From positions 1,213,001-1,277,000 of the forward strand of contig CAVTJP010000005.1 in assembly GCA_963735085.1 (NCBI GenBank): DNA of 64,000 nucleotides, in the 5' to 3' direction. The position numbers were made by a program, and so were the translations under genes. The stretch is from an uncultured Gammaproteobacteria bacterium. Its GTDB lineage: Bacteria > Pseudomonadota > Gammaproteobacteria > Pseudomonadales > Azotimanducaceae. Below the pieces are notes generated by a model that ran no database searches, was not told the origin of the DNA, and was given only the letters and a program-made list of their open reading frames with translations. Shown piece after piece: positions 8,959-50,654 of this stretch; positions within the stretch are counted from its first letter, which is position 1; each line of letters starts with the position of its first letter.

Positions 8959-10194
8959 ATGAAGACGAACAGGGTTTCGGCGAGTCCGCTGTTGAGTGCG
9001 TTGATCGTGCTGCTGACGGTCACGTTGGGTGCGATGATATTCGTGATCGTCACGGACGACCGATCGGTGACCGGGAACAACCCACTAATGCTCGCCGTCG
9101 GCAGCATCGTGTTGGTGTCCATCATCGCGATGCTGTTGCTGCGTGACGCACGCAACCGGCTCACCGAACAGGCGGAACAGAACGAAAGGAATCAGGCGGC
9201 CATTCTTCAACTACTCGATGAACTGGCTGATCTTGCTGAAGGCGACCTGACGGTACACGCATCAGTGACCGAGAATTTCACGGGCGCCATTGCGGATTCA
9301 ATCAATTTTGCGATTGACCAGATGCGCGGCCTCGTATCGAACATCAATCGCGTATCCGTGCGTGTTGCGCGGGCGGCGGAAGAAACGCAGCAAACTGCGC
9401 GCGGCCTCGCTAATGCATCCGACAACCAAGCGCGCGAAATTACCGCGGCGTCGACGGCCATCAACGAGATGGCGGTGTCGATCGACCATGTGTCGTCGAA
9501 CGCAGCCGAATCCGCCGCTGTTGCCGAACGAGCCGTGGCGATTGCGAACAAAGGCGCCGATGTGGTGCAGGCGACGATTGGCGGAATGGACACGATTCGC
9601 GGCCAGATTCAGGAAACGTCCAAGCGGATCAAGCGCCTGGGAGAGTCGAGCCAGGAAATTGGTGACATTGTATCGTTGATCAACGATATCGCTGACCAAA
9701 CCAATATCCTATCGTTGAACGCCGCAATCCAGGCGTCGATGGCGGGCGATGCGGGACGCGGCTTCGCGGTCGTCGCAGACGAAGTACAGCGTCTCGCAGA
9801 GCGATCGTCCGCGGCGACGAAGCAGATCGCCGCGCTCGTCAAGACGATTCAAACGGACACGAATGAAGCAGTCATCTCCATGGAGCAGACGACGACGGAA
9901 GTCGTCAGTGGCGCAAAACGCGCGCAGGATGCGGGTGTCGCGCTTGAGGAGATCGAAAGCGTATCGACCTCGCTTGCCGAATTGATTCAGAACATCAGCA
10001 ACGCGGCACGGCAACAGGCGGCCTCCGCCGGCCACGTGTCGAATACGATGGGCGTCATTCAGGAGATCACCTCGCAGACCGCCAACGGTACCGAAGCAAC
10101 AGCGAAGTCAGTCGGCGCGTTGGCTGAAATGGCGAACGAGATGCGCGTATCGGTTGAGTTCTTCAAGCTGCCCGGCGAATCGAAGTCTCGTTGA
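8959..10194 (+). CDS. pilJ: Methyl-accepting chemotaxis protein PilJ (short form, no periplasmic domain)
   Basis: Two N-terminal TM helices (about nt 8986-9051 and 9085-9141) separated by an ~11-residue loop. These are followed by HAMP-like and MCP signalling domains (DQTNILSLNAAIQASMAGDAGRGFAVVADEVQRLAERS). Confidence 0.8.
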   Translation: MKTNRVSASPLLSALIVLLTVTLGAMIFVIVTDDRSVTGNNPLMLAVGSIVLVSIIAMLLLRDARNRLTEQAEQNERNQAAILQLLDELADLAEGDLTVHASVTENFTGAIADSINFAIDQMRGLVSNINRVSVRVARAAEETQQTARGLANASDNQAREITAASTAINEMAVSIDHVSSNAAESAAVAERAVAIANKGADVVQATIGGMDTIRGQIQETSKRIKRLGESSQEIGDIVSLINDIADQTNILSLNAAIQASMAGDAGRGFAVVADEVQRLAERSSAATKQIAALVKTIQTDTNEAVISMEQTTTEVVSGAKRAQDAGVALEEIESVSTSLAELIQNISNAARQQAASAGHVSNTMGVIQEITSQTANGTEATAKSVGALAEMANEMRVSVEFFKLPGESKSR

Positions 10195-10254
10195 GCAACG
10201 CAACGTAGAATCCGCGCTGCGGCGCTTCCACCGAACTGCCGACTGGATAGGCGA

Positions 10255-13200
10255 ATGACCGAAAGCCGAGAACATTTTGCGCTGGACTGGATCAAGCGCG
10301 AGATCGACGAAACGCTGAAGTCAGCGCGTCAGGCACTGGAAGCCTACGCGGAGTCGGAGCGCGACGAAACGCGAATGCGTGCTTGTCTGACGTATCTGCA
10401 TCAAGTGCACGGCACTCTGTTGATGCTGGAGCTCACTGGGGTCACGGTCCTCAGCGACGAGATGGAACAACTCGCGCAGGCGCTACTCCATGGTTCGGTA
10501 GCGAACGTAGCTGATGCGCAACAGCTGTTGATGCAAGGCATTCTGCAGCTGCCGGCCTATCTGGAGGAAATCCAGAAAGGGCTGCCGGACTCGCGTCGCG
10601 CAGTACTCCCGCTTGCCAACGAGCTACGTGGGGCGCGGGGTGCCGAACGATTTCCGGATGCGGGGTCGCGTGCTGGTGTGTCACTTCATGGTACCGCGAC
10701 CAGCGAGACACTAAAGCGATTCGATCAGATCGATGGCACCGAAAAAGCACGGCGCATTCGCGCAGCCTATCAGCAGGTACTGTTGTCGGTTCTGAAGGGT
10801 GAAGGCTCACACAACGCGCTCGCGACGCTCGCTAAAGTCGCCGCCGGGCTCGAACGAATTTGCGAGAATACACCGTACACAGCACTGTGGCGCGCGTTCT
10901 CCGCGTTTGTCGCGGCACTCTCGGAAAGTAAGGCGCACCTGAGCGGAGATGTGGTGCGCTTGCTACGCCGCGTCGATGCAGAGATCAAGGCGCTTGCCCA
11001 AAATGGCGTCGCCGCGTTGACGCGGCCACTTTCGCTGGATCTCGTCAAGCAACTCGTCGATGCCGCGCGTGAGCATGGCAACACCGATCCGGACATCAAG
11101 TTACTGGGCGACGCGATTGCAGAGGAGCCCGCGGAGGATCGGGTCGCCATCTCGAAGCGCGAAGCCATACATACGGCTGCGGCTGCACTTCGCGAGGAAC
11201 TCGCGGCTGTAAAGGATTCGCTCGATCTGTTCGTTCGAAGCGATCCGCGCTCGACCGAGCAGCTTTTGCAGTTGACCGTGCCGCTGAAGCAGATTGGAAG
11301 CACTTTGTCGATCCTGGGGTTCGAGAGTTCACGCGCAGTGATCGCCGATCAGATCGAGGCGATGCAAGGCGCCGTTCAGGATGGCGCCTGCGACGAAGTA
11401 CTCCTTTTGGGGGTCGCGTCCGCACTGTTACAGGTGGACGAGAATTTAGCGGCGATTGCGAAGCAACGCGGTCGTATGAGCAGCACGCCGGACGCGTCCG
11501 GGCTGGTCAGTGAAGCACAAGTCGCAGTGTTGGGTGAAGCGCGCACCGGGCTCGACCAGATTAAGCAAGCTGTAGTCGACTATGTATCGGCGCAGTGGGA
11601 TCCGAGTCGTCTCGTCGACGTGCCCGCGTTGCTGTCGGCGGTGCAGGGCGCGCTCGCGATGGTAACGCTGGTGCGTCCGGCAGAACAGTTGGGCCGATGC
11701 GCGAAGTACGTCGCCAACGAACTCATTGCGGGGCGTGCGCCAGATTGGACCGGTCTTGATGCGTTCGCCGACGCTATCAGTGGAATCGACTACTACCTCG
11801 AACGATTTTGTGACGACCCGGCACAGCCAGGCGAGGAAATTCTGGGCGTCGTCGAGCGGAGTTTGGTACAGCTTGGATATGGGGAAGGTAGCGAACGTGC
11901 GCTGCGACCCGTCGAATTGCCTCCCATAGAGACCGTATCCGAATCTCCAATAGCCGCCGAGCCCGAGACATCCATTGATCCGGCTATGGAAGAAGCGCCG
12001 GCCGCGGTCCATACCGAGCCTGATAACGAAGAACCGAAGTTCGAAGAGGAAGCGCAGGAACTGCCTCTGGAAGCGGACCTTGCGGGTGACTTTGAACTCG
12101 TCGTCGAAGACCCGGACGAAGTATCGAGCGGTCCGGTGAGCGTTGATGAATTGGAAGACGACGCGTTCGACCTGGACGATCTGCAGCTTGGGTCTGATTC
12201 GAATCGCGCCGACGGCACCACGCCGCACCTCGAAGCGCCATCCTTCGCCCCTGCTGAATCGACCGATTTCAGTGACGAGGACTTGCAGACCATTGCCGAT
12301 GACGTGCCGGCGTCGCATGACGATCTCGAAGTCGAAGCACTTGCAAACACCCCGCGGCGTCAGATCGCCGAAGCCCCTACCGACATCGACGATGACATCC
12401 TCGAGATCTTCGTCGAAGAAGTTGGCGAGGTACTCGAGCGTGTCGATTTGTGGTTACCCCAATGGACGAGCGATTTCGCCAACGACGAAGCGCTTTTGGA
12501 GGTACGCCGTGCTTTCCACACGCTGAAAGGCAGCGGTCGTATTGTTGGCGCGAACCTCATCGGTGAGCTTGCCTGGTCGGTGGAAAACATGTTCAACCGG
12601 GTGATGGACGGCACCGTCGCACCGAACGCGCAAATTGGTAGCGTGGCTGGCGAGGCGAGATCAGCGATACCCGGCCTATGCCGGGCGTTCGAGAGTCGCC
12701 GGTCCATAGCCGATAGCCAAGTTGTAGGCATCATGGAAAGGGCGGATGTTCTGGCCTCGGGCGGCCGCCTCGAAGAACTCCTGGATGAGAGTTCGAGCCA
12801 AGTGATTCCACAGAGCGAAGCTGAAGATCGTTTTGCGATGTCGCAAACCGGCGATTCACCGGATTCTTCGGCGCAACTGAACAGACACAGTTCTGCCGAC
12901 GAAGCGGAGACGTTCGCGCTGTTCGAGCAGGAGGCAGCGCTACATCTAGCCGTACTGGAGGAGCGCTTCCAGCGAACGGATACAGCGGGCACAAATGCAC
13001 TGACAGACGATGTGGTGCGCGCGCTTCATACCCTGCGTGGCAGCGCGTCGATGGCAGGAGTAGACAGCGTGTCGGGCATCGCCGGGCCCCTCTACCGAGT
13101 CGTCAGTGAAGCGCGTGACGTCGGTATGCGTGCTGGTCCCGACATCATCGATTTCGTTCAGCAGGGCGTGTTCGCGCTGCGTCGCACGCTCAATGCCGTG

Positions 13201-16200
13201 TCGGAGGGCGCCGAACCGCACGAGGATGTTGCGTCGTTCGAAGCGGAGGCGGACCGTCTGGTCGCGACACTTGGCGAAGCTGGGGCTGGTGCGGCTTCGG
13301 CGCTTCTCAGTTTGGATGGTGCGCCGGTGTTGCTCGGTGCGCGTGATTTCCTGACGGGATGGCGCGATGGTGCGATGGACCTCGGCGCGCTGTCGGATAC
13401 CGTCGCGGCGCTGCACGAGTTGCGGAACGAAGCGGAAAGCCAAAGCCAGCCGCCAATTGCGCATTTGTGCGACGGATTGATCGCGGCCTATGAGCGTCTC
13501 GAAGACCATCCGTTGAGCAATGCGGCACATGCGGTACTGAGCCACGCACACGAGCTTCTGCTAAGCATGTTCGACGCCATCGCTGCACAGCAGGCTCTGC
13601 CGGACCCAGCGGACGAACTCGTGGCGTTGTCCGAAATACAAGGGACCAGTATTGGCGCTGACGAACCCGATCCACTTGAATCAGGCGATCGAGCCTCGCC
13701 ATCAGCACATGTCGTCGACTTCCCGACATTCGTCCGACCTTCTGAAACGATGCATGAAGAACGCCAGGAAAAGTCGATCGAGTCAGAGCCAGAATTGCCA
13801 AACGCGCCGATACTGGAAGAGCGTGTTGAGGCGCCCGCTCCAATGGATGGCGATGCTGCGTCGCACCCAAGTATCACATTGCCGCCGGATACCGACCCAG
13901 AAATCCTCGAGATCTTCTTCGAAGAAGCGGAGGAACTGCTGGAAGCAATCGATCAGAGTATTCACGATTGGCTCGCAGCCCCCGATAACCGCATTCATCT
14001 CGAAAACCTATTGCGCGCGTTGCACACCCTGAAAGGCGGAGCACGCCTAGCCGGCTTGTCGGCGCTGGGCGACGACGCGCACGGGTTCGAATCGTTCCTG
14101 ATCAGTGTGCAAGGCAAGCCTGCGTTGCCTGACGGATTCTTTGATTCGTTGCAGTTGCGTCACGACGAGATGGTCGTTGGGGTAAATGCACTGAAGGCGG
14201 CCGCCAGCGGTGGCGGCGCAATACCTGACGCGACGACAACCACGAGACAGGCCGTGCCGCCGCCGATCCAGGCATCGAAACCATCGGCCGCCCCCTCGTC
14301 GGGAAGCGCAACACCATCGGCGCCCGTCGCGCGAGTCGTTGTCGAAGATCCCGTGGACACGTCCACGCCTGAAGCGCGCAACGACGAATCCGTTGGCGGC
14401 CGCGCCGTCCAGGACCCGCGCGAGATGGTTCGCGTATCGGCAGGATTGCTCGAGCAGTTGGTCAACCTCGCCGGTGAGAGCAGCATCATCCGCTCGCGCG
14501 TTGAGCAGGGCATGAACGATTTCAGCGCGTCGCTGGAAGAGATGGAGATCACGATCGAACGCGTGCGCGAGCAGTTGCGCCGCCTCGAGATCGAAACCGA
14601 AACGCAGGTGCTGTTCCGCCGTGAAGTCAGTCAGGGCCAGGACTACGAAGAGTTCGATCCCCTCGAGATGGATCGATACTCGCAATTGCAGCAGCTTTCA
14701 CGATCATTGTCCGAGAGCGCGTCGGACATGCTCGACCTCAAGGAGACGCTCGCCTTCAAGGCGCGCGAATCTGAAACGCTGCTGATCCAGCAGGCACGCG
14801 TCAATACCGAGTTGCAAGAAGGCTTGATGCGGACGCGCATGGTGCCTTTCAACCGACTGCTGCCGCGGTTGCGTCGCACAGTCCGCCAGGTATCACGTGA
14901 CCTCGGCAAAGAGGTCGATTTCCACGCGTACAACGCCGAAGGCGAACTCGATCGTAATGTGCTCGAACGCATGGTCCCGCCGCTGGAGCACATGCTGCGC
15001 AACGCGGTAGACCATGGCATCGAGCGCGCAGAGTTTCGCCGTGGCTTCGGCAAGCCTGATGTCGGTCGCATTGACCTGCGGTTATCGCGCGAAGCCGGTG
15101 ACGTGGTCATCGAGATCTCCGACGACGGAGCCGGCATTGATGTCGAATCGGTTCGCGCCAAAGCGCTCGAGCGCGGTTTGATGACGGCCGATGCGAAGTT
15201 GCGCGATGACGAGATCCTGCAATTCGTGTTGGCGCCAGGCTTCAGTACCGCGAAATCGGTCACCCAGATCTCCGGCCGGGGCGTCGGAATGGACGTCGTC
15301 CACAGCGCAGTGAAGCAGCTCGGCGGCAGCATCACGATTATGTCGATTGCGGGCAAAGGTACGCGATTTACGGTGCGATTGCCGTTCACCGTTTCGGTGA
15401 ACCGCGCATTGATGGTGTCGGTCGGCGAGGATCAATATGCGATTCCACTGAACACGATCGAGGGCATCGTGCGCGTGTCCGGCGTTGAACTCGAAAAGCT
15501 GTATGGTCCCGACGGCGGTGGATTCGAGTACGCCGGTGTGCCGTACCGGGTGCGTTACCTCGGCAGCTTTATTGGTCGCGACTATGTGGCGTTGTCAGAT
15601 CGCGGCTCGGTGCCAGTGGTGCTGGTCCGTTCCGGCGATCGTGCTGTGGCGGTGCATGTCGACGGCGTGCAGGGTAGCCGCGAAATTGTGGTGAAGAGCC
15701 TTGGCCCGCAGTTTGCCGGCGTGGGTGGTATTTCCGGCGCGACCATTCTGGGCGACGGGAGCGTCGTTGTGATCCTTGACCTGCTTGCGTTGATTCGTGC
15801 GCAGACGGCACCGGTCTACGCGAACGGGACGCCCGCGGCTGCAGCGGATCGGCCGACATGCGTGATGGTCGTCGATGATTCGGTGACGGTACGCAAAGTC
15901 ACCTCGCGGCTCCTCGAACGACAGGGCATGGACGTCATCCTCGCCAAAGACGGTGTCGAAGCCGTCGCGATGCTGCAGGAACGCAGACCGGACATCATGT
16001 TGCTCGATATCGAGATGCCACGGATGGACGGCTTCGAAGTGGCGCGCCAGATTCGCCACGACGAGCGGCTTTCGAATCTGCCGATCGTGATGATCAGCTC
16101 ACGTACCGGAGCCAAGCACCAGGAGCGTGCTGAAGAACTCGGCGTGAATCGTTTCCTGGGCAAGCCGTTCCAGGAGAACGAATTGCTCGCGACGATCGAA

Positions 16201-16215
16201 GAGCTTGTTCGGTAG
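10255..16215 (+). CDS. chpA: ChpA/PilL-type multi-Hpt hybrid histidine kinase (CheA-like) with C-terminal receiver
   Basis: 1986 aa. Hpt-like histidines sit at H52, H755 (FHTLKGSG), H925 (LHTLRGSA) and H1257 (LHTLKGGA). Dimerisation/HATPase core (NAVDHGIE, DDGAGID, GRGVGMD), CheW-like domain, and REC domain (VVDDS...LLDIEMPRMDG, D1918). Confidence 0.9.
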   Translation: MTESREHFALDWIKREIDETLKSARQALEAYAESERDETRMRACLTYLHQVHGTLLMLELTGVTVLSDEMEQLAQALLHGSVANVADAQQLLMQGILQLPAYLEEIQKGLPDSRRAVLPLANELRGARGAERFPDAGSRAGVSLHGTATSETLKRFDQIDGTEKARRIRAAYQQVLLSVLKGEGSHNALATLAKVAAGLERICENTPYTALWRAFSAFVAALSESKAHLSGDVVRLLRRVDAEIKALAQNGVAALTRPLSLDLVKQLVDAAREHGNTDPDIKLLGDAIAEEPAEDRVAISKREAIHTAAAALREELAAVKDSLDLFVRSDPRSTEQLLQLTVPLKQIGSTLSILGFESSRAVIADQIEAMQGAVQDGACDEVLLLGVASALLQVDENLAAIAKQRGRMSSTPDASGLVSEAQVAVLGEARTGLDQIKQAVVDYVSAQWDPSRLVDVPALLSAVQGALAMVTLVRPAEQLGRCAKYVANELIAGRAPDWTGLDAFADAISGIDYYLERFCDDPAQPGEEILGVVERSLVQLGYGEGSERALRPVELPPIETVSESPIAAEPETSIDPAMEEAPAAVHTEPDNEEPKFEEEAQELPLEADLAGDFELVVEDPDEVSSGPVSVDELEDDAFDLDDLQLGSDSNRADGTTPHLEAPSFAPAESTDFSDEDLQTIADDVPASHDDLEVEALANTPRRQIAEAPTDIDDDILEIFVEEVGEVLERVDLWLPQWTSDFANDEALLEVRRAFHTLKGSGRIVGANLIGELAWSVENMFNRVMDGTVAPNAQIGSVAGEARSAIPGLCRAFESRRSIADSQVVGIMERADVLASGGRLEELLDESSSQVIPQSEAEDRFAMSQTGDSPDSSAQLNRHSSADEAETFALFEQEAALHLAVLEERFQRTDTAGTNALTDDVVRALHTLRGSASMAGVDSVSGIAGPLYRVVSEARDVGMRAGPDIIDFVQQGVFALRRTLNAVSEGAEPHEDVASFEAEADRLVATLGEAGAGAASALLSLDGAPVLLGARDFLTGWRDGAMDLGALSDTVAALHELRNEAESQSQPPIAHLCDGLIAAYERLEDHPLSNAAHAVLSHAHELLLSMFDAIAAQQALPDPADELVALSEIQGTSIGADEPDPLESGDRASPSAHVVDFPTFVRPSETMHEERQEKSIESEPELPNAPILEERVEAPAPMDGDAASHPSITLPPDTDPEILEIFFEEAEELLEAIDQSIHDWLAAPDNRIHLENLLRALHTLKGGARLAGLSALGDDAHGFESFLISVQGKPALPDGFFDSLQLRHDEMVVGVNALKAAASGGGAIPDATTTTRQAVPPPIQASKPSAAPSSGSATPSAPVARVVVEDPVDTSTPEARNDESVGGRAVQDPREMVRVSAGLLEQLVNLAGESSIIRSRVEQGMNDFSASLEEMEITIERVREQLRRLEIETETQVLFRREVSQGQDYEEFDPLEMDRYSQLQQLSRSLSESASDMLDLKETLAFKARESETLLIQQARVNTELQEGLMRTRMVPFNRLLPRLRRTVRQVSRDLGKEVDFHAYNAEGELDRNVLERMVPPLEHMLRNAVDHGIERAEFRRGFGKPDVGRIDLRLSREAGDVVIEISDDGAGIDVESVRAKALERGLMTADAKLRDDEILQFVLAPGFSTAKSVTQISGRGVGMDVVHSAVKQLGGSITIMSIAGKGTRFTVRLPFTVSVNRALMVSVGEDQYAIPLNTIEGIVRVSGVELEKLYGPDGGGFEYAGVPYRVRYLGSFIGRDYVALSDRGSVPVVLVRSGDRAVAVHVDGVQGSREIVVKSLGPQFAGVGGISGATILGDGSVVVILDLLALIRAQTAPVYANGTPAAAADRPTCVMVVDDSVTVRKVTSRLLERQGMDVILAKDGVEAVAMLQERRPDIMLLDIEMPRMDGFEVARQIRHDERLSNLPIVMISSRTGAKHQERAEELGVNRFLGKPFQENELLATIEELVR

Positions 16216-44447: not shown

Positions 44448-44535
44448 TCTCGGGCCATAGTCACTTCTTTCAGACGTCATCGACGTATCTCTCGGCGAGT
44501 ACACTGACGGACCCGCAAACAAAAGGATCGCCGCC

Positions 44536-44958
44536 ATGATCCGCGCCGCCTGCCACTGCACCGCCGTTCGCCTCGAGATCACCGATCTCCCAGCTTGGGT
44601 GCTCGATTGCAACTGTACGATCTGTCGCCGCTACGGCGCGATCTGGTCATACCCGGAAGCCGGGCACGTGAAGGTCGTCAAGGACGCGACCGACACGTAC
44701 CTCTGGGGCGATCACCAGTTGGCGTTCCACCGCTGCAAGGAATGCGGGTGTGTCATGTACATGGAAGCCGTTAAAGAGAACCCGCCATTCATCTACGGCG
44801 TCAACGCGCGGATGATTCCGACGCTCGACCCGTCGAGCGTGCGAGTGCGGCAAAAGGACAACGGCCACACCGGTTGGTTCTGGACGCCCTCCGACGATCC
44901 GCCGGAGCCGAGTCGTCATCCCAAGATGGATCCGCCCGGCGAAAACGATTGGCGATGA
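44536..44958 (+). CDS. GFA (glutathione-dependent formaldehyde-activating / CENP-V) family protein
   Basis: CHCTAVR...CNCTICRRYG...CKECGC zinc-cysteine pattern. Confidence 0.8.
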   Translation: MIRAACHCTAVRLEITDLPAWVLDCNCTICRRYGAIWSYPEAGHVKVVKDATDTYLWGDHQLAFHRCKECGCVMYMEAVKENPPFIYGVNARMIPTLDPSSVRVRQKDNGHTGWFWTPSDDPPEPSRHPKMDPPGENDWR

Positions 44959-45007
44959 TCAGACCCGGGGCCCTGAAGCGACGGTCGGGTGGGGAGAAGC
45001 TTGGCGC

Positions 45008-45910
45008 ATGGAACGCGACGAACACCGATCCGAACTGGGCGAGTGGCAGACGGCGCAACGACCTGCCGACCCGCGCCTACGCGCATATGTTCACGGTTAC
45101 TTGGCGAGTTCGAGCAATCTTCGGGTGCCGGTTCGGGAGCTGCATCTGCCGTCGACAGAAGTCGCCGTTCTTCTGAATTTCGGTGAGTCGCATCGACGCT
45201 TGGATGCGGCGGGCTCGGGAGAATGGTCCGCAAGAGACGGTGTCTGGGTGGTCGGGTTGCACAACCGGCACCAGCTCACACAGGCATTCGGTGAGCGACA
45301 TTTCATGGTCGTGCGATTCACGCCGATTGGCGCGCATCTTTTCCTCCGCCTGCCGATGTACGCGATCGCCAATGAGGCGGTCGATCTCGAACAGATCAAT
45401 CCCACTTTTGCGCGCGTTCTCGTCAGTCGTGTTGGCGTTGCGAAAAGTTGGGTCGATCGGTTCGCGGCCGTCGAATCGCTAATCGCCGAACGCGTAGCGC
45501 AGGTGCAGATACCCGCTTCCACCGGTTTGGCCTGGCGCAGGCTCGTGGCGGCAGACGGCCGCGTCGCGCTCGGTTCGGTCGCTGCCGAACTCGATTGCAG
45601 CCATCGCACGCTGATTGCGAATTTCCGTACGTGCGTTGGGTTTCCGCCTAAGACGATCGCGCGATTGCTGCGCTTCAATCGTGTTGCGCGTGAACTCGAC
45701 CATCTGAGTTCGACTCGCGCCAACGAGCCTGCGGGCAAACCGTCCATCGAGGCGGAGCCTGCAGACGAACGATTAGTGCGAGCGGTTCGGTGGACCGATC
45801 TCGCGGCCGACTGCGGATATTTCGATCAGGCGCATCTCATCAAGGATTTCCGGGCTTTCGCCGGCAGCAACCCCACTGCGTTCCTGCGCCGCGTCTCCAA
45901 CCTGAACTGA
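45008..45910 (+). CDS. AraC-family transcriptional regulator
   Basis: C-terminal double HTH (LDCSHRTLIANFRTCVGFPPKTIARLLRFNRV...DCGYFDQAHLIKDFRAFAG). Confidence 0.8.
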   Translation: MERDEHRSELGEWQTAQRPADPRLRAYVHGYLASSSNLRVPVRELHLPSTEVAVLLNFGESHRRLDAAGSGEWSARDGVWVVGLHNRHQLTQAFGERHFMVVRFTPIGAHLFLRLPMYAIANEAVDLEQINPTFARVLVSRVGVAKSWVDRFAAVESLIAERVAQVQIPASTGLAWRRLVAADGRVALGSVAAELDCSHRTLIANFRTCVGFPPKTIARLLRFNRVARELDHLSSTRANEPAGKPSIEAEPADERLVRAVRWTDLAADCGYFDQAHLIKDFRAFAGSNPTAFLRRVSNLN

Positions 45911-45962
45911 ACGTCCGGGCGATCAAATAATTCCAATACCGGGGCGCGTGCTCGGCGGTTAG

Positions 45963-46778
45963 ATGATGTCCGTCGCAAAAAGCGAGGAGCTAAACGAGAT
46001 GCAATCCCCACCGATCAGCCAGGCCGAGATCGACGCGCGAATCGGGCCCCACATCGATGAGTTGCTTGCGCTTTGGTGGGCCGAGCAAGGCGCCTCGAAG
46101 CCCGCCGACCTCGACTTGATCGCGTTGGCGGTACCGTTTCCGCGCGACCAGGCTATTCGCGTACTGGATCTCTGCTGTGGTCCCGGTGACGTTGGCCGGA
46201 CGATCCAACGGATCTATCCGAACACGCACGTCGACTGCATCGATCGAGACCCGTTTTTAACGTCGATCTGCCGAACCGCCAATCAGCGGGACCGCATACC
46301 CGGACGTGTGGTCGTGAGAGACTTGAACGACGACGGCTGGCTGGACGAATTCTCTGGCAACTACGACGTTGTGGCGACGGTCAATGCGTTGCATTGGTTC
46401 GACGCGCGGTGCGTACAACAGTTGATTGCCGACGTTCACGAGGCGCTGCGCGGTGGCGGGACGTTCGTGCTCGCCGAGCCGGCATCTGCCGAGCCACCGT
46501 TCGCGACCGGTTTCGACGAATGGAAAGCGAAGCAACCGCCGCGCTACTCGCGCGAGAATTGGGAACGGTTCTGGTCGCGTGCGAACGCGCTGCTCGGGTA
46601 TGACCACCCAGCGCTCTGGGGACCACGCGACGAGAATCGCATCGATGAAGGTATATCAGTGGCAGGCTGGAGCGGCCTGCTCGAACGGGCCGGCTTCACA
46701 TGCGTCGACGTGCTGCTGCGAGACGCCGATCAGGTTGTCATCGGCGCGCTGAAATCCACTGATGCCGATCATCACTGA
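45963..46778 (+). CDS. Class I SAM-dependent methyltransferase
   Basis: Motif I VLDLCCGPGDVG and post-I/II motifs (CIDRDP, VATVNALHWF). Confidence 0.75.
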   Translation: MMSVAKSEELNEMQSPPISQAEIDARIGPHIDELLALWWAEQGASKPADLDLIALAVPFPRDQAIRVLDLCCGPGDVGRTIQRIYPNTHVDCIDRDPFLTSICRTANQRDRIPGRVVVRDLNDDGWLDEFSGNYDVVATVNALHWFDARCVQQLIADVHEALRGGGTFVLAEPASAEPPFATGFDEWKAKQPPRYSRENWERFWSRANALLGYDHPALWGPRDENRIDEGISVAGWSGLLERAGFTCVDVLLRDADQVVIGALKSTDADHH

Positions 46779-46815
46779 GGCGATCGATCGACAAGGTGCG
46801 GACGCTCTAGCAGGC

Positions 46816-48762
46816 TTACCCGCGAATTTGCGCCGCGCGTTCGAGCGCTTCGAGAAGCTGCCGCCTGTAGACCGCCGTGTCGAGCATGTGCCTGCGTATC
46901 GTCTGGGTGGAGCCGAGCATCAGCTTCAGGCCGTCAGGAAGTACCGTCTCCTCAATGTGCACCGCGAGCACCGTGTTGCCTAGATCGTAGGCGAAGTTGA
47001 CTTCGTTGATGCAGTGATTCGATTGCACTGAGTTCGCGGAAATGAAGATGAGCAGAGCCGGCGCGCGTCGGATTGCGGCCGCTAGTTCATCGCTCCACCG
47101 CGAGCCCGCCGGAATTCCCTCGTCGTACCACACCTTGATGCCGCGTTCGGTCAGCCACGCTACCTCCGCATGAACGGTAGCCGCGTCGTCGTGTGAATAA
47201 CTGACGTAGACGAGCGGATCGTCACCGCGGTACGACGGAACGCGGATGCTGCGGGTAGCGGGTATCGGATCACGCCACTGCAGGCCGTGGCCGATGATGT
47301 TCGACCGGTCGACGTCATCGGCATAGCCCGGATTGATGGCGGCGATGTGCTCCGACAGCACCGAATGAAGCAGATAGTGCGACGAAGGAGGCAACGTGCG
47401 AGCGATGCCGAATCTACTTTCGCCCGGACCGAGGAAGCGTTGCATTCGGCGCCCCGAAATCGCATCGGCGACGACGATCCCGAGCAGCCCCACCTGATAC
47501 AACGCGGCGAAAGCCTCGCGACCGGTGGCGTTGCCTCGGTGCTCCGGCGCTAGATCGTACTGGTCCGCCAGTGCCGCAAGCGCTTCCGCCGACAGTACGT
47601 TGCGTGAAATTAACGTCAGCAGCCCACTCAGGTTCACGTCGCCGATGTGTGGCGCGATTTCGTTGAGGTACTCCTGGGCCACTTCCTTCGCTGCGTCGTT
47701 GACGGCCCGCTTGAAGCGACTTTCGATGAGACGTTCTTCCGGCTCCATTGACGTGAGCTTCTGGCCAACGCTCATCAAGTCGCGCGGGCGACGCAGCGTG
47801 TGCCGTTCGATGTAGCCGAACACTTCTTCTTCCACGCCGGTGAACCCGTGAACTGTCGAGCGGCGACCAACGAACGCTTCAAGGGGCGATGCGTCAAGGC
47901 GCTCCGGCATCGAGAGGTTGCTCTTGCGTTCGCGCAGAATGTTGTTGATGAAGATCTGTCGCAGCCCCGACTCGGTGTAGATCGTCTCGATCGCGCTGCC
48001 GCGATACTGCTGCACCATCGGGCTCGTCTCCGCCAGCCGGTCGAACGCTTCTTTGCGGACCGTCGCGAAGACTTTCAGATGTTTGGTCACCCGACGCAGT
48101 TGATACGCCACCTCGACGAGCGACATCTGCGACAGGAACCAGACGTTGGGCGATAGCTCTCCGGAAAAGCTGGCACGCCAGATCGGCGCATGAATGTGTT
48201 TGTTGAAGTATTCATCGACGCTATCGATGAATACACCCACCGGCGTGTTCAACGTACGCAGCAGCGGCACGAGGAGCGAGTTCGTCTCTTGTGCGCAGCG
48301 ATGCACATCACGTGGCGCGAAATCCAGCAGCACGACGAAATGATCGAGCACACTGCGCAGTTGCGTATTGCGCAACAGGTTCGAGAACCGCGGTGAAACG
48401 TCGAGCTGGTCCGGAAGTCCCGTCTGCTTCAAAACCGCGCTCGCGATCGCCGTCAGCCAGACCTTGTTCCAGGGATCGATGTCTTCGTAGAGGCCCAGCA
48501 GTTGCCGGCTGAATACCTTATCGCCGACGGGCTTGTCCAACAGCGCGTGTTGGGGGATGCATTGTTGGCCCGACTGCTGATAGCGGATCCGTTTCGCCTT
48601 CAGCAGAAGTGTTTTTCCGAAACCCTTTGGACCCACGACGATGAACTTGTCGTCGCGTCCTGTGTCGAGAAAGTTCTGAATCCACGCAGTTTTATGCAAC
48701 ACCTCATCGTCGTAATCGGTGGCAATGTGGATGTCGTCGGCGTCGATTGTCCACGGTCGCAT
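46816..48762 (-). CDS. P-loop (STAND-like) NTPase with C-terminal TIR domain
   Basis: Walker A GPKGFGKT (nt 48610-48633), Walker B-like VGVFIDSVDE, and an hhhTxR-like KVFATVRKE. The C-terminal ~135 aa (LVYVSYSHDD...LLIFISANSVQSNHCINEVNFA) looks like a TIR fold, with the conserved Glu at residue 587 (nt 47002-47004). Confidence 0.8.
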   Translation of the reverse strand: MRPWTIDADDIHIATDYDDEVLHKTAWIQNFLDTGRDDKFIVVGPKGFGKTLLLKAKRIRYQQSGQQCIPQHALLDKPVGDKVFSRQLLGLYEDIDPWNKVWLTAIASAVLKQTGLPDQLDVSPRFSNLLRNTQLRSVLDHFVVLLDFAPRDVHRCAQETNSLLVPLLRTLNTPVGVFIDSVDEYFNKHIHAPIWRASFSGELSPNVWFLSQMSLVEVAYQLRRVTKHLKVFATVRKEAFDRLAETSPMVQQYRGSAIETIYTESGLRQIFINNILRERKSNLSMPERLDASPLEAFVGRRSTVHGFTGVEEEVFGYIERHTLRRPRDLMSVGQKLTSMEPEERLIESRFKRAVNDAAKEVAQEYLNEIAPHIGDVNLSGLLTLISRNVLSAEALAALADQYDLAPEHRGNATGREAFAALYQVGLLGIVVADAISGRRMQRFLGPGESRFGIARTLPPSSHYLLHSVLSEHIAAINPGYADDVDRSNIIGHGLQWRDPIPATRSIRVPSYRGDDPLVYVSYSHDDAATVHAEVAWLTERGIKVWYDEGIPAGSRWSDELAAAIRRAPALLIFISANSVQSNHCINEVNFAYDLGNTVLAVHIEETVLPDGLKLMLGSTQTIRRHMLDTAVYRRQLLEALERAAQIRG

Positions 48763-48790
48763 TCAGTCACCGTCTTGCGGAGGTCGCGCA

Positions 48791-48819
48791 ACATTAGGAG
48801 ATGTCACCTGGTCAATCAA
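48791..48819 (-). promoter_or_regulatory. Putative sigma70 promoter of the NTPase-TIR gene (TTGATT-17-TAATGT)
   Basis: On the minus strand, TTGATT (48814-48819), a 17-nt spacer, then TAATGT (48791-48796), about 30 nt upstream of the ATG. Pattern match only. Confidence 0.3.
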
Positions 48820-48848
48820 ACCGGCACGGCGCCGCCTCGGTACAACCG

Positions 48849-49922
48849 CTACGGCCGCACTTCGTAGTACAGATTGCTCGGGTCCTCGAAGTCGTGTTCC
48901 GTGAACTGCGTGAACCCGGCTTCCCGAACCATCCGCTCCGCAACATCCGGGTTGAATCCAAGCGTGCCCAGCCCCGCGCCGCCGGGTTCGGACAACGCAG
49001 ACGACATGCATGCCGACACCGAGAAGCCGTAGAACATCGCGAGCATCGGATTGCGCATGTTCTTCTTGTAGTCCGCATTGCTGCGGATGTCCTTGATCAG
49101 CCACGTGCCGTCGGGCTTCAGCGTGCGGCGAATCGCTTCGATCACCTGCGCCGGTCGCGTCATGTCATGCAGGCAATCGAACGTGATCACGAAGTCGTAC
49201 GTCGGCTCCTTCGGTAATGCTTCTCCGCTCGCAATGAACGCCTGCATGTTTGTCAGGTTCTGCTCGCGCACCTTCGTATTGCAGTTTGCAATCGCATGGC
49301 TGCTCGGGTCGTAGCCGTGGAATGTCGAGTTCGAAAATACCGCCGCCATACTGGCCAGCGCGAGGCCGCTGCCGCAACCGACGTCCGCCACCTTGCAACC
49401 GCGTTCGAGTTTTTGCAGTACGCCGTCGAGCGCCGGGATGATTTTCGGTACCAGCGCCTGCCGCACCCACGGGCCGAGCATGCGTTCGGTGCGATGCGCC
49501 GCGTTCGAGCCGAGTTGTTCGTAGCTGAGACCGATGCCGGTTCGGAACGCATCACACAGCTTGTCGACGATCTCGGGTGCCGATGCAGGTGCGAATGCGC
49601 CAGCGGCGAATGCGAGACTGCCGTTTTCGTCGGCGAGCACCGCGGCACCGACCGGCGTCAGCTCGAAACGGTCGGTATCGTGATAGTCCAGCAACCGCGC
49701 GGCCGCTTGCCCCCGCAGCCATTCGAACAACCAGCGTTCTTTCAATCCGGTGCGTTCGGCAAGTTCAGCAGCGGTCACCGGACCGGCGTCCTGGAGCGCC
49801 CGATAGAGTCCCAGCCGGTCGCCAATATGAATCATCAGCGAGACCATCTCGCCCTGCTTGTAGCTCCAGACGTTGAACGAATAGCGCTTCAGCGCTTCAG
49901 GGTCGACGAACGGCTCAGTCAC
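48849..49922 (-). CDS. Class I SAM-dependent methyltransferase with N-terminal winged-helix-like domain (Rv2258c-like)
   Basis: N-terminal wHTH-like LGLYRALQDAGPVTAAELAERTGL..RWLFEWL. Motif I VADVGCGSGLA. Confidence 0.75.
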   Translation of the reverse strand: MTEPFVDPEALKRYSFNVWSYKQGEMVSLMIHIGDRLGLYRALQDAGPVTAAELAERTGLKERWLFEWLRGQAAARLLDYHDTDRFELTPVGAAVLADENGSLAFAAGAFAPASAPEIVDKLCDAFRTGIGLSYEQLGSNAAHRTERMLGPWVRQALVPKIIPALDGVLQKLERGCKVADVGCGSGLALASMAAVFSNSTFHGYDPSSHAIANCNTKVREQNLTNMQAFIASGEALPKEPTYDFVITFDCLHDMTRPAQVIEAIRRTLKPDGTWLIKDIRSNADYKKNMRNPMLAMFYGFSVSACMSSALSEPGGAGLGTLGFNPDVAERMVREAGFTQFTEHDFEDPSNLYYEVRP

Positions 49923-50078
49923 GTGGGTTCTCCTGTTGTGTATGAAAGCGACAGCATCGGATGCTAACGCTGCGGCACAGCACGCGCAAAAAGTAGACAG
50001 TAGCTAGACCCGCACTCATCCCAATAGCGTTACGAGTAACGTAGAATCTACTACGACAGCGCGATCTTTGGAGGCAGC

Positions 50079-50654
50079 ATGACGACTGAACGCTTCGAGT
50101 ACCTGGGCGTCAATCACGTGGCGCTCGTCTGCAAAGACATGAAAGAGACGGTCGATTTCTATACGAACGTGCTCGAGATGCCGCTCGTGAAGACGCTCGA
50201 AATTGGCAATCACGGTCAGCACTTCTTCTTCGACGCCGGCAACGGCGCGACGATTGCGTTCTTCTGGTTCCCCGATGCACCGGAGGCCGCGCCGGGCATC
50301 GCCTCGCAGGATCGACGGCCCGGATCGAATTTCACCACCGCGCACGCGTCGATGAACCACCTTGCGATTTCGATCCCGCTCGAAAAGTTTGATTCGTATG
50401 TCGAGCGGCTGAAGCAGAAGGGCATCAAGGTGCGCGTGATCAATCACGCGGACAATCCCGAGGGTTACACTGTCGGCGTCACCGACAGTACCTGGATCCG
50501 CTCCATGTACTTTGCCGATCCGAACGGCATCGCGATGGAACTCGCGGCGTATACCCGCGCGTTCCGTGCCGACGATGTGGTGCACACGCCGGCAACGCAC
50601 GCCGATCGCGAGCGTTACCTGGCAGCGCGCGCGTCAGCCAACGGCCGGCACTGA
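50079..50654 (+). CDS. VOC (glyoxalase/bleomycin-resistance/dioxygenase) family protein
   Basis: GVNHVALVCKDMKETVDFYTNVLEMP and a second beta-alpha-beta-beta-beta module (MNHLAISIP...). Confidence 0.75.
   Translation: MTTERFEYLGVNHVALVCKDMKETVDFYTNVLEMPLVKTLEIGNHGQHFFFDAGNGATIAFFWFPDAPEAAPGIASQDRRPGSNFTTAHASMNHLAISIPLEKFDSYVERLKQKGIKVRVINHADNPEGYTVGVTDSTWIRSMYFADPNGIAMELAAYTRAFRADDVVHTPATHADRERYLAARASANGRH

Follow-up and report, generated by a model that had tools for sequence, protein, structure and literature searches.

What does a solitary gene do when it joins a P-loop nucleoside triphosphatase (NTPase) to a TIR domain and no gene beside it gives its function away? The question is raised by positions 46816–48762 of the window, the 64,000-nucleotide stretch of the genome of an uncultured Azotimanducaceae bacterium (contig CAVTJP010000005.1) that was analysed here. 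Our data point to a self-contained enzyme switch controlled by nucleoside triphosphate, in which the N-terminal ~500 residues, a chassis of the Sll1717 family, would gate a C-terminal TIR NAD+ hydrolase (NADase), perhaps in abortive infection or another conflict role. We put the probability of this reading at roughly 0.45; an immune role is plausible, and it is proposed without support from the gene neighbourhood.

The interval is a single open reading frame (ORF) on the minus strand, starting with ATG and encoding 648 aa, with the stop codon at 46816–46818. The ORF list, the translation, the homologues and the substitution pattern all mark it as a complete coding sequence, and a plus-strand reading was rejected because it is broken by stops. 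The start is secure, since a stop codon lies immediately 5′ of the ATG and all full-length homologues (n = 21, 63–96% identity) begin with the same MRPWT. The orthologue P0001, from locus L001 of a related metagenome-assembled genome (MAG), shares 96% protein identity with the target, and in this one pair 145 codon differences are synonymous and 29 non-synonymous, giving a ratio of non-synonymous to synonymous rates (dN/dS) of ~0.05. The gene is clearly under strong purifying selection and functional. An earlier sequence-only reading, which had proposed a STAND-like NTPase with a TIR immune effector, had placed GPKGFGKT at residues 44–51, VGVFIDSVDE at 175–184, KVFATVRKE at 230–238, the TIR domain from 517 and a catalytic glutamate at E587, and all of these positions are exact.

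The C-terminal domain (residues 516–648, 46819..47217, minus strand) was identified as a TIR domain by Pfam, by profile comparison with the PDB, by an AlphaFold2 (AF2) model and by Foldseek. Pfam TIR_2 matches residues 518–621 with E = 2.1e-17 and 64.2 bits (cutoff 28). A profile built from ten TIR tails of the family matches ~50 solved TIR chains, the best being the NADase Cat1 (1.6e-12), with TLR1, TLR2, TLR6, RPS4, RUN1, RPV1, ROQ1, AbTir, SARM1 and TIR-SAVED among the others. The full-length AlphaFold model, with a mean confidence score (pLDDT) of 77, contains the five beta–alpha units of the flavodoxin-like TIR fold, running from betaA at 518–521 to alphaE at 629–647, and Foldseek aligns it with the TIRs of TRR-2, AbTir, SARM1, BtpA, RPS4 and SPARTA at target-normalised template-modelling (TM) scores of 0.55–0.77. 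The view that the last ~135 residues are a bacterial TIR domain is therefore borne out.

The putative catalytic glutamate, E587 (codon 47002..47004, minus strand), aligns with E74 of Cat1 and with the Glu of the WCLDEL motif of plant RPV1 (WCxxEL in general form), which is the position proposed from the letters of the gene. In NAD+-cleaving TIRs the catalytic Glu stands in the alphaC region, in a motif of SxWCxxEL type. Through the same alignments S521, D547 and S581 correspond to Cat1 S7, D33 and S68. Within the family's TIR tails S581 never varies, D547 and E587 show conservation of at least 90%, and S521 falls outside the conserved columns. The Cat1 active site is lined by S7, H8, N9, N10, D33, S68 and E74 of one TIR, a second TIR supplies K121 and Y122, the site forms only on filament assembly, and E74A abolishes activity (PMC12162218). 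As this site lies between stacked TIRs, Cat1 offers a precedent for activation by proximity. Judged from the aligned residues, the target TIR is plausibly a competent NADase that would need TIR–TIR contacts.

Conservation of E587 is no proof of activity, because the TIRs of TLRs keep the same Glu; the residue is a necessary but not a sufficient feature of an NAD+-cleaving TIR. The domain might then be a non-catalytic interaction module, as in TLR/MyD88, that recruits partners to the NTPase, and on the family profile TLR TIRs indeed score nearly as well as NADase TIRs. This is nevertheless very improbable: the residues at four positions of the Cat1 NADase site are matched in the target, the TIR took the place of an enzymatic cyclase domain, as described below, and most bacterial TIRs studied to date are enzymes that process NAD+.

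To what class does the N-terminal part belong? Residues 28–445 (47428..48681, minus strand) match NCBIfam NF047389, 'P-loop ATPase, Sll1717 family', with 72.5 bits against a cutoff of 75, over profile positions 23–431 of 454. Ten relatives with other C-termini score 64–98 bits on this profile, and five of them exceed the cutoff, so that the target, judged by profile similarity, is best described as a homologous, borderline member of the family. A literature search returned no paper mentioning the name Sll1717. No Pfam family covers the first ~500 residues (AAA_16 reaches 19.6 bits, cutoff 32.6), and NACHT, NB-ARC and nSTAND have no Pfam match in the target. Nothing in PADLOC-DB v2.0.0 matches residues 1–510, the matches in that database being partial and confined to the TIR (SAVED_TIR 3.7e-7, ThsB, Aga_TIR). 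PDB sequences contain no NTPase match to the module, even with a profile of 111 sequences, and a link to the NACHT segment of P0232 was rejected, as hhalign aligned the P-loop alone, with a probability of 1%. With no known defence system matching the NTPase part in PADLOC, and no partner gene, the label 'orphan' given to the gene earlier holds.

The AF2 model of residues 1–510 (pLDDT 87, predicted TM score 0.85) has a P-loop core with a helical insertion (86–170), a helical lid and a winged-helix-like alpha/beta region (414–483). Its Foldseek relatives are all of AAA+/STAND/ORC type and remote, namely katanin, mS29, McrB, NOD2, ORC2/Cdc6, BrxC and DnaA. The N-terminal model reaches an E value of 2e-3 at best and the full-length model one of 5.7e-4, with NOD2, and every TM is ≤0.33 (~0.18–0.23 for NOD2, with ORC2, BrxC, McrB and katanin similar); therefore no specific clade was assigned to the N-terminal model. 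The ATPases matched in this way are oligomerising switches.

The NTPase motifs are intact, and their conservation was read from 111 distant members. In the Walker A loop (GPKGFGKT, residues 44–51, 48610..48633, minus strand), G47, G49 and K50 are invariant. The Walker B strand with its acidic pair (VGVFIDSVDE, residues 175–184, 48211..48240, minus strand; model strand 175–179) has the form hhhhDxxDE, which resembles NACHT, with D180 invariant, D183 at least 90% conserved and E184 conserved. The strand KVFATVRKE (residues 230–238, 48049..48075, minus strand; model strand 229–236) ends in R236, which is invariant at the end of strand 4 in a sensor-1-like, STAND-like position, and R254 before strand 5, invariant or nearly so, is a possible arginine finger. 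At the start of a lid-domain helix lies RHTLRRPRDLM (residues 320–330, 47773..47805, minus strand; model helices 314–320 and 326–337), in which R320 and R327 are invariant and H321, R325, P326 and D328 at least 90% conserved, making it a candidate sensor-2 or GxP-like element. The winged-helix-like region (47314..47523, minus strand) comprises helix 414–423, strands 427–432, 439–442 and 462–465, and helix 467–476 in the model; G425 and G428 never vary, conservation reaches at least 90% at Y463, H466 and P467, and H466 may have an MHD-like role. Finally, a conserved N-terminal segment (residues 1–35, MRPWTIDADDI..., 48658..48762, minus strand) keeps W4, T5, D7, A8, D9 and D10 invariant in 82 subfamily sequences and W4, D7 and A8 at least 90% conserved in the distant members, and is modelled with low to moderate confidence.

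These features suggest that the module is a divergent AAA+/STAND-class P-loop NTPase without a close characterised relative. The description 'STAND-like' is no more than suggestive: it agrees with the motifs and with the place of NOD2 among the better Foldseek matches, but no STAND profile reaches threshold and the TM values stay at or below 0.33. Pfam, NCBIfam and the models agree with the proposed order of NTPase, helical region (helical and winged-helix-like in the model) and C-terminal TIR, and Pfam finds no TPR, LRR or WD40 sensor in the target, again as had been noted.

How general is this arrangement? An exhaustive search with residues 1–510 as query, made at the level of clusters of 50% identity, gave 1093 representative clusters at E ≤ 1e-3 and 302 at E ≤ 1e-30. 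Of the 150 best listed out of the 1093, almost every one has the module at its N-terminus, starting at residue 1, with 150–430 further residues behind it. The architecture had been called unusual and inverted, which is true by comparison with Avs, bNACHT and plant TNLs, whose effectors lie at the N-terminus or, where C-terminal, behind repeats, but within this family of 1093 clusters it is the standard layout.

We then clustered 232 C-terminal tails and scanned the cluster representatives against Pfam. The commonest tail (163 of 232) is a ~180-aa domain without Pfam match, whose profile hits the class-III nucleotidyl-cyclase homology domain (3mr7, 2e-10, together with Rv1900c, Ma1120 and Rv1264) and which keeps its two metal-binding Asp residues and its transition-state Arg without exception. 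JGI labels these relatives 'class 3 adenylate cyclase'. Examples lie at L004 8001–10085, L005 8001–10052 and L092 10001–12049 (proteins P0023–P0120), and the usual Asn before the Arg is apparently replaced. The blast-linked cluster of the target holds 38 tails: 25 are recognisable TIRs (P0001–P0022, P0182, P0220 and the target), P0248 has its TIR after a ~370-aa spacer, and the 12 others have only a long uncharacterised tail in common. About ten clusters (P0139, P0141, P0149, P0203, P0204, P0235, P0251, P0258, P0260 and P0261) carry a ~410-aa C-terminal region that is also present in P0248, a protein that has a TIR at its end in addition; P0139 was scanned with no Pfam or NCBIfam match, and the region is possibly a sensor or a further effector. 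Smaller groups end in DUF4062, nucleoside-deoxyribosyltransferase-like, methyltransferase, Ser/Thr kinase, PIG-L or CN-hydrolase domains, and others in CHAT, PNP_UDP_1, Schlafen/AlbA_2, a second AAA domain, NACHT with pentapeptide repeats, or HAD. Among these, DUF4062 has been described as the immune NADase 'NIR' (bioRxiv 10.64898/2026.09.04.749371), and the effector classes of bacterial NACHT proteins include TIR, PNPase, Schlafen, cyclic nucleotide monophosphate (cNMP) cyclases, caspase-like peptidases and kinases (10.1101/2022.07.19.500537). The family thus follows a rule of one chassis with a swappable C-terminal enzyme.

The history of the TIR form can be read from the NTPase module. When a neighbour-joining tree is built from it, all TIR-type proteins group in a single clade, whose sister is a cyclase subclade (63% identity) and which falls inside the cyclase diversity (~53% identity). 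This nesting means that the TIR replaced the cyclase on the same chassis, and it points to a recent effector swap. The junction falls close to residues 496–515: likeness to the cyclase-type relatives stops near W496–D498, and the linker that follows (residues 499–515, 47218..47268, minus strand) is marked by this loss of similarity and by low pLDDT at 503–507. A remote relative of the NTPase module, 20% identical across residues 20–496, lies at L009 9932–12148 on plasmid pCY186 of Butyrivibrio proteoclasticus and is annotated 'SEFIR domain-containing protein', which suggests that fusions of SEFIR, a TIR-like domain, to Sll1717-type chassis exist in Firmicutes.

Class-III cyclases are obligate dimers, and CHAT (caspase-like) proteases are probably likewise dependent on proximity. 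The commonest C-terminal partners of the chassis share activation upon being brought together, and since class-III cyclases, TIR NADases and probably CHAT all need to be brought together, we infer that the chassis oligomerises. A cue would be sensed within the NTPase module itself, for which the helical insertion at 86–170, the variable stretch at ~375–420 and the invariant N-terminal peptide are candidate surfaces. The nucleotide state of the module would change and oligomerisation would follow, gathering the C-terminal TIRs so that composite active sites could form and hydrolyse NAD+. Loss of NAD+ would lead to growth arrest or cell death, and the most likely setting would be defence against phages or other invaders by abortive infection. 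Such a conflict role is the most economical reading because of the effector repertoire of the family and its patchy distribution.

The same repertoire bears on another possibility, that the TIR generates a signal, like ThsB in Thoeris, and that an ADP-ribose-derived messenger (cNMP from the sister cyclases) activates an effector encoded elsewhere. TIR and cyclase occupy the same position on the chassis, both classes include known messenger makers, and the target TIR has weak ThsB-like profile matches. We regard this as unlikely, however, as none of 80 loci has a receptor or effector gene linked to the family member, the effector is adjacent in known TIR-signalling systems, the family also bears the terminal effectors CHAT, PNP and Schlafen, and the best sequence match is Cat1, which depletes NAD+.

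Where, then, is the family found? When one genome from each of 185,579 species was scanned, 193 relatives were found. The best 80 of the 193 are all from MAGs, mostly from soil, and belong to Gamma-, Beta-, Alpha- and Deltaproteobacteria, Methylomirabilota, Thermodesulfobacteriota, Binatia, Opitutales, Chloroflexia, Dormibacterota and others. Among these 80 the spread is patchy, with ~50% identity across phyla, and the TIR type is limited to Gammaproteobacteria/Pseudomonadales-like MAGs. One cyclase-type member (L030, Nitrosotalea sp. MAG, contig DATIWG010000062.1) lies on a contig that binning assigned to an ammonia-oxidising archaeon, reflecting either inter-domain transfer or binning contamination. 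The position of the gene in the genome also varies among related MAGs. The patchy spread at ~50% identity indicates horizontal spread and, with the varying position and the absence of a fixed neighbour, agrees with an accessory gene that moves horizontally. That this genome acquired the gene recently by horizontal transfer was rejected, since the GC content of the target (0.60) and that of its third codon positions (GC3, 0.74) are the same as in core genes. An origin in a mobile element was rejected too, searches of plasmids, phages and IMG/VR being near empty.

To compare the neighbourhoods, 898 neighbour ORFs from 80 loci were clustered all against all, which gave no conserved partner gene. 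The two largest non-self clusters are artefacts that arise when the high-GC DNA of the target gene is read in antisense or in another frame, and the next largest is a generic SDR present in 8 of the 80 loci. Ten homologue loci, with TIR-type and cyclase-type genes, were annotated with Pfam (L001 and nine more); neither they nor the window contain ThsA, a cyclase with SAVED, an Argonaute or a reverse transcriptase as partner. That the target has no adjacent partner gene had been noted already, and it now extends to the related loci. The immune role that was claimed with it has fared less well, as it finds no support in the genomic context and the annotated homologue loci are metabolic or housekeeping in character, a pattern that the earlier reading had itself counted against the claim.

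Several observations weigh against a conflict role or against the gated NADase itself. Neighbours in ten of the ten annotated loci are metabolic or housekeeping genes, which differ between loci, and restriction-modification, CRISPR and Abi genes, integrases and transposases are absent from these loci and from the window; defence-island proximity is thus not seen in this small sample. No relatives occur among the 2.9 million viral contigs of IMG/VR, plasmids gave three weak matches, and phages gave one, to the TIR only. The composition is that of core genes, and a dN/dS of 0.05 gives no hint of an arms race within the single pair compared. The commonest C-terminal domain of the family is a cyclase, and methyltransferase, PIG-L, CN-hydrolase and HAD tails are not classic immune effectors. 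At the level of the protein, no sensor domain is identifiable, the first 510 residues match nothing in PADLOC-DB, NACHT, NB-ARC and nSTAND do not match, STAND membership is not established (profiles below threshold, hhalign limited to the P-loop), and non-enzymatic TLR TIRs hold the same glutamate as E587.

Much of this would suit a physiological role, in which the same NTPase-gated TIR NADase would serve the cell as a chromosomal regulator, acting on NAD+ or nucleotide pools, dormancy or stress responses, with its cyclase sisters engaged in cNMP signalling, a classic signalling output borne by most family members. The metabolic surroundings in every annotated locus, the native composition together with strong purifying selection, and the failure to find copies on phages or other mobile elements all agree with it, as does the vertical retention of the target and an adjacent methyltransferase in two related MAGs at 88% nucleotide identity. 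On the other hand, CHAT, PNP, Schlafen and DUF4062 in the family are typical conflict effectors, the phyletic spread is patchy at ~50% identity across phyla, and the genomic position differs among related genomes. A physiological role seems rather unlikely to us, and we favour the NTP-gated NADase in a conflict setting.

The window itself is ordinary chromosome, with genes for a ChpA-like chemotaxis kinase, transketolase, pgk, ilvA and glycine cleavage, as well as a PQQ propeller, patatin, DsbH and ptsP. Near the target the order is GFA, AraC, class-I methyltransferase, target, winged helix-turn-helix (wHTH) methyltransferase, glyoxalase, Ysc84 and RDD, confirming that an AraC regulator and two methyltransferases flank the gene. 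Both methyltransferases belong to generic class-I S-adenosylmethionine-dependent Pfam families, one with an Rv2258c-type wHTH, and no DNA-methyltransferase family is among their Pfam matches; they were rejected as restriction-modification partners, being class-I enzymes of the small-molecule type. The wHTH-methyltransferase gene lies 86 bp upstream of the target on the same strand, with a weak terminator-like hairpin at its 3′ side. A sigma70-like promoter of the target's own had been proposed, and a consensus scan of 46500–50100 gave no site.

Of the two methyltransferases the upstream one alone is syntenic, and only in the closest relative (L001, 88% nucleotide identity), where it is collinear with the target. 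Synteny with this relative ends exactly at the target stop codon. Beyond the break, L001 has a five-gene block (PhyH, TetR, LysR, ADH and TIR-TPR) that is absent from the window, its last-named member being a 544-aa TIR_2 and TPR protein at L001 16148–17782, four genes from the target orthologue. The corresponding part of the window, 44500–46814 between GFA and the target, holds AraC and the class-I methyltransferase in place of this different five-gene set, and is a small variable accessory patch within the core chromosome.

Two other regions of the window deserve mention. At 8959–16215 an MCP gene is followed by the 1986-aa ChpA-like hybrid histidine kinase, with Pfam matches to three Hpt stretches, HATPase_c, CheW and a receiver domain. 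Within this ORF ARAGORN calls a 'tRNA-???' with a two-base anticodon (12304–12390, minus strand), which is almost certainly a false positive. At 54042–56215 the patatin-like phospholipase ORF is only 239 aa long and is overlapped by two longer ORFs without Pfam match (54445–55137 and 54566–56215), and there may be a frameshift here, or the frame may have been wrongly chosen, or a gene may have escaped annotation.

What would follow from a gated NADase of this kind? If the chassis gates the TIR, the protein would be a compact addition to the NLR-like immune repertoire, with the effector directly after the winged helix and no repeat sensor, and a function would be gained for a large unannotated family found almost only in soil MAGs. 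It would also be a candidate defence gene invisible to 'guilt-by-association' searches. More tentatively still, and with some doubt, the family could be an unreported class of single-protein conflict or immune systems in which a 'sensor-less' chassis directly drives C-terminal enzymes that are interchangeable and switched on by proximity (TIR, NIR/DUF4062, class-III cyclase, CHAT, PNP, Schlafen and kinase) and which spread horizontally outside defence islands; its hosts may be mostly uncultured soil bacteria. Since such a class would lie outside classical defence islands, discovery pipelines based on islands would miss it. If the role is instead physiological, the protein would be a rare bacterial housekeeping NADase gated by nucleoside triphosphate.

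To place the target among known systems, we compared its layout with those described. The components and the general logic of an NTPase switch with a TIR are already known; the chassis is uncharacterised, its family having no more than a name in NCBIfam, and a direct C-terminal effector without a repeat sensor is not described in the literature searched. Keyword searches over main-text sections returned no description of the layout, and neither did term searches of such sections of a STAND survey (PMC13581612), a death/TRADD-N paper (PMC8195603) and an E. coli TIR survey (PMC11350192). The chassis resembles NF047389 in that residues 28–445 align over nearly the whole 454-position profile, and differs in scoring just below its cutoff. 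Avs, bNACHT, Rst_TIR-NLR and plant TNLs likewise combine a P-loop switch and a TIR NADase-type domain on one polypeptide, and TIR-bearing STAND/NLR proteins share the hhhhDxxDE Walker B and the hhhTxR strand motif with the target, NOD2 being among its best structural matches. The target, however, has the opposite order, its effector being C-terminal and following the winged-helix region directly, without a repeat sensor, and in the described bNACHTs with C-terminal effectors the effector follows the repeats (10.1101/2022.07.19.500537).

Cat1 (CARF-TIR) provides the closest solved TIR, with four aligned site residues and, by analogy, an expected inter-TIR site. In contrast to the target, which is a lone gene with an NTPase as regulator, Cat1 and TIR-SAVED have an N-terminal TIR gated by a cyclic-oligonucleotide sensor (CARF or SAVED) and belong to multi-gene systems. 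SARM1 also has a C-terminal TIR NADase, restrained by N-terminal domains and activated in an oligomer (target-normalised TM of its TIR ~0.6–0.68), but it uses ARM and SAM domains rather than an NTPase and has no sequence relationship to the target beyond the TIR. The nearest comparison is with the cyclase-type sisters, which share 50–63% identity over residues 1–498, have the same layout and are equally solitary in the genome, and which end in a divergent class-III cyclase homology domain (2e-10 against the PDB, no Pfam match) instead of a TIR. This natural exchange of TIR for cyclase offers a clean test of whether an output can be activated by induced proximity alone.

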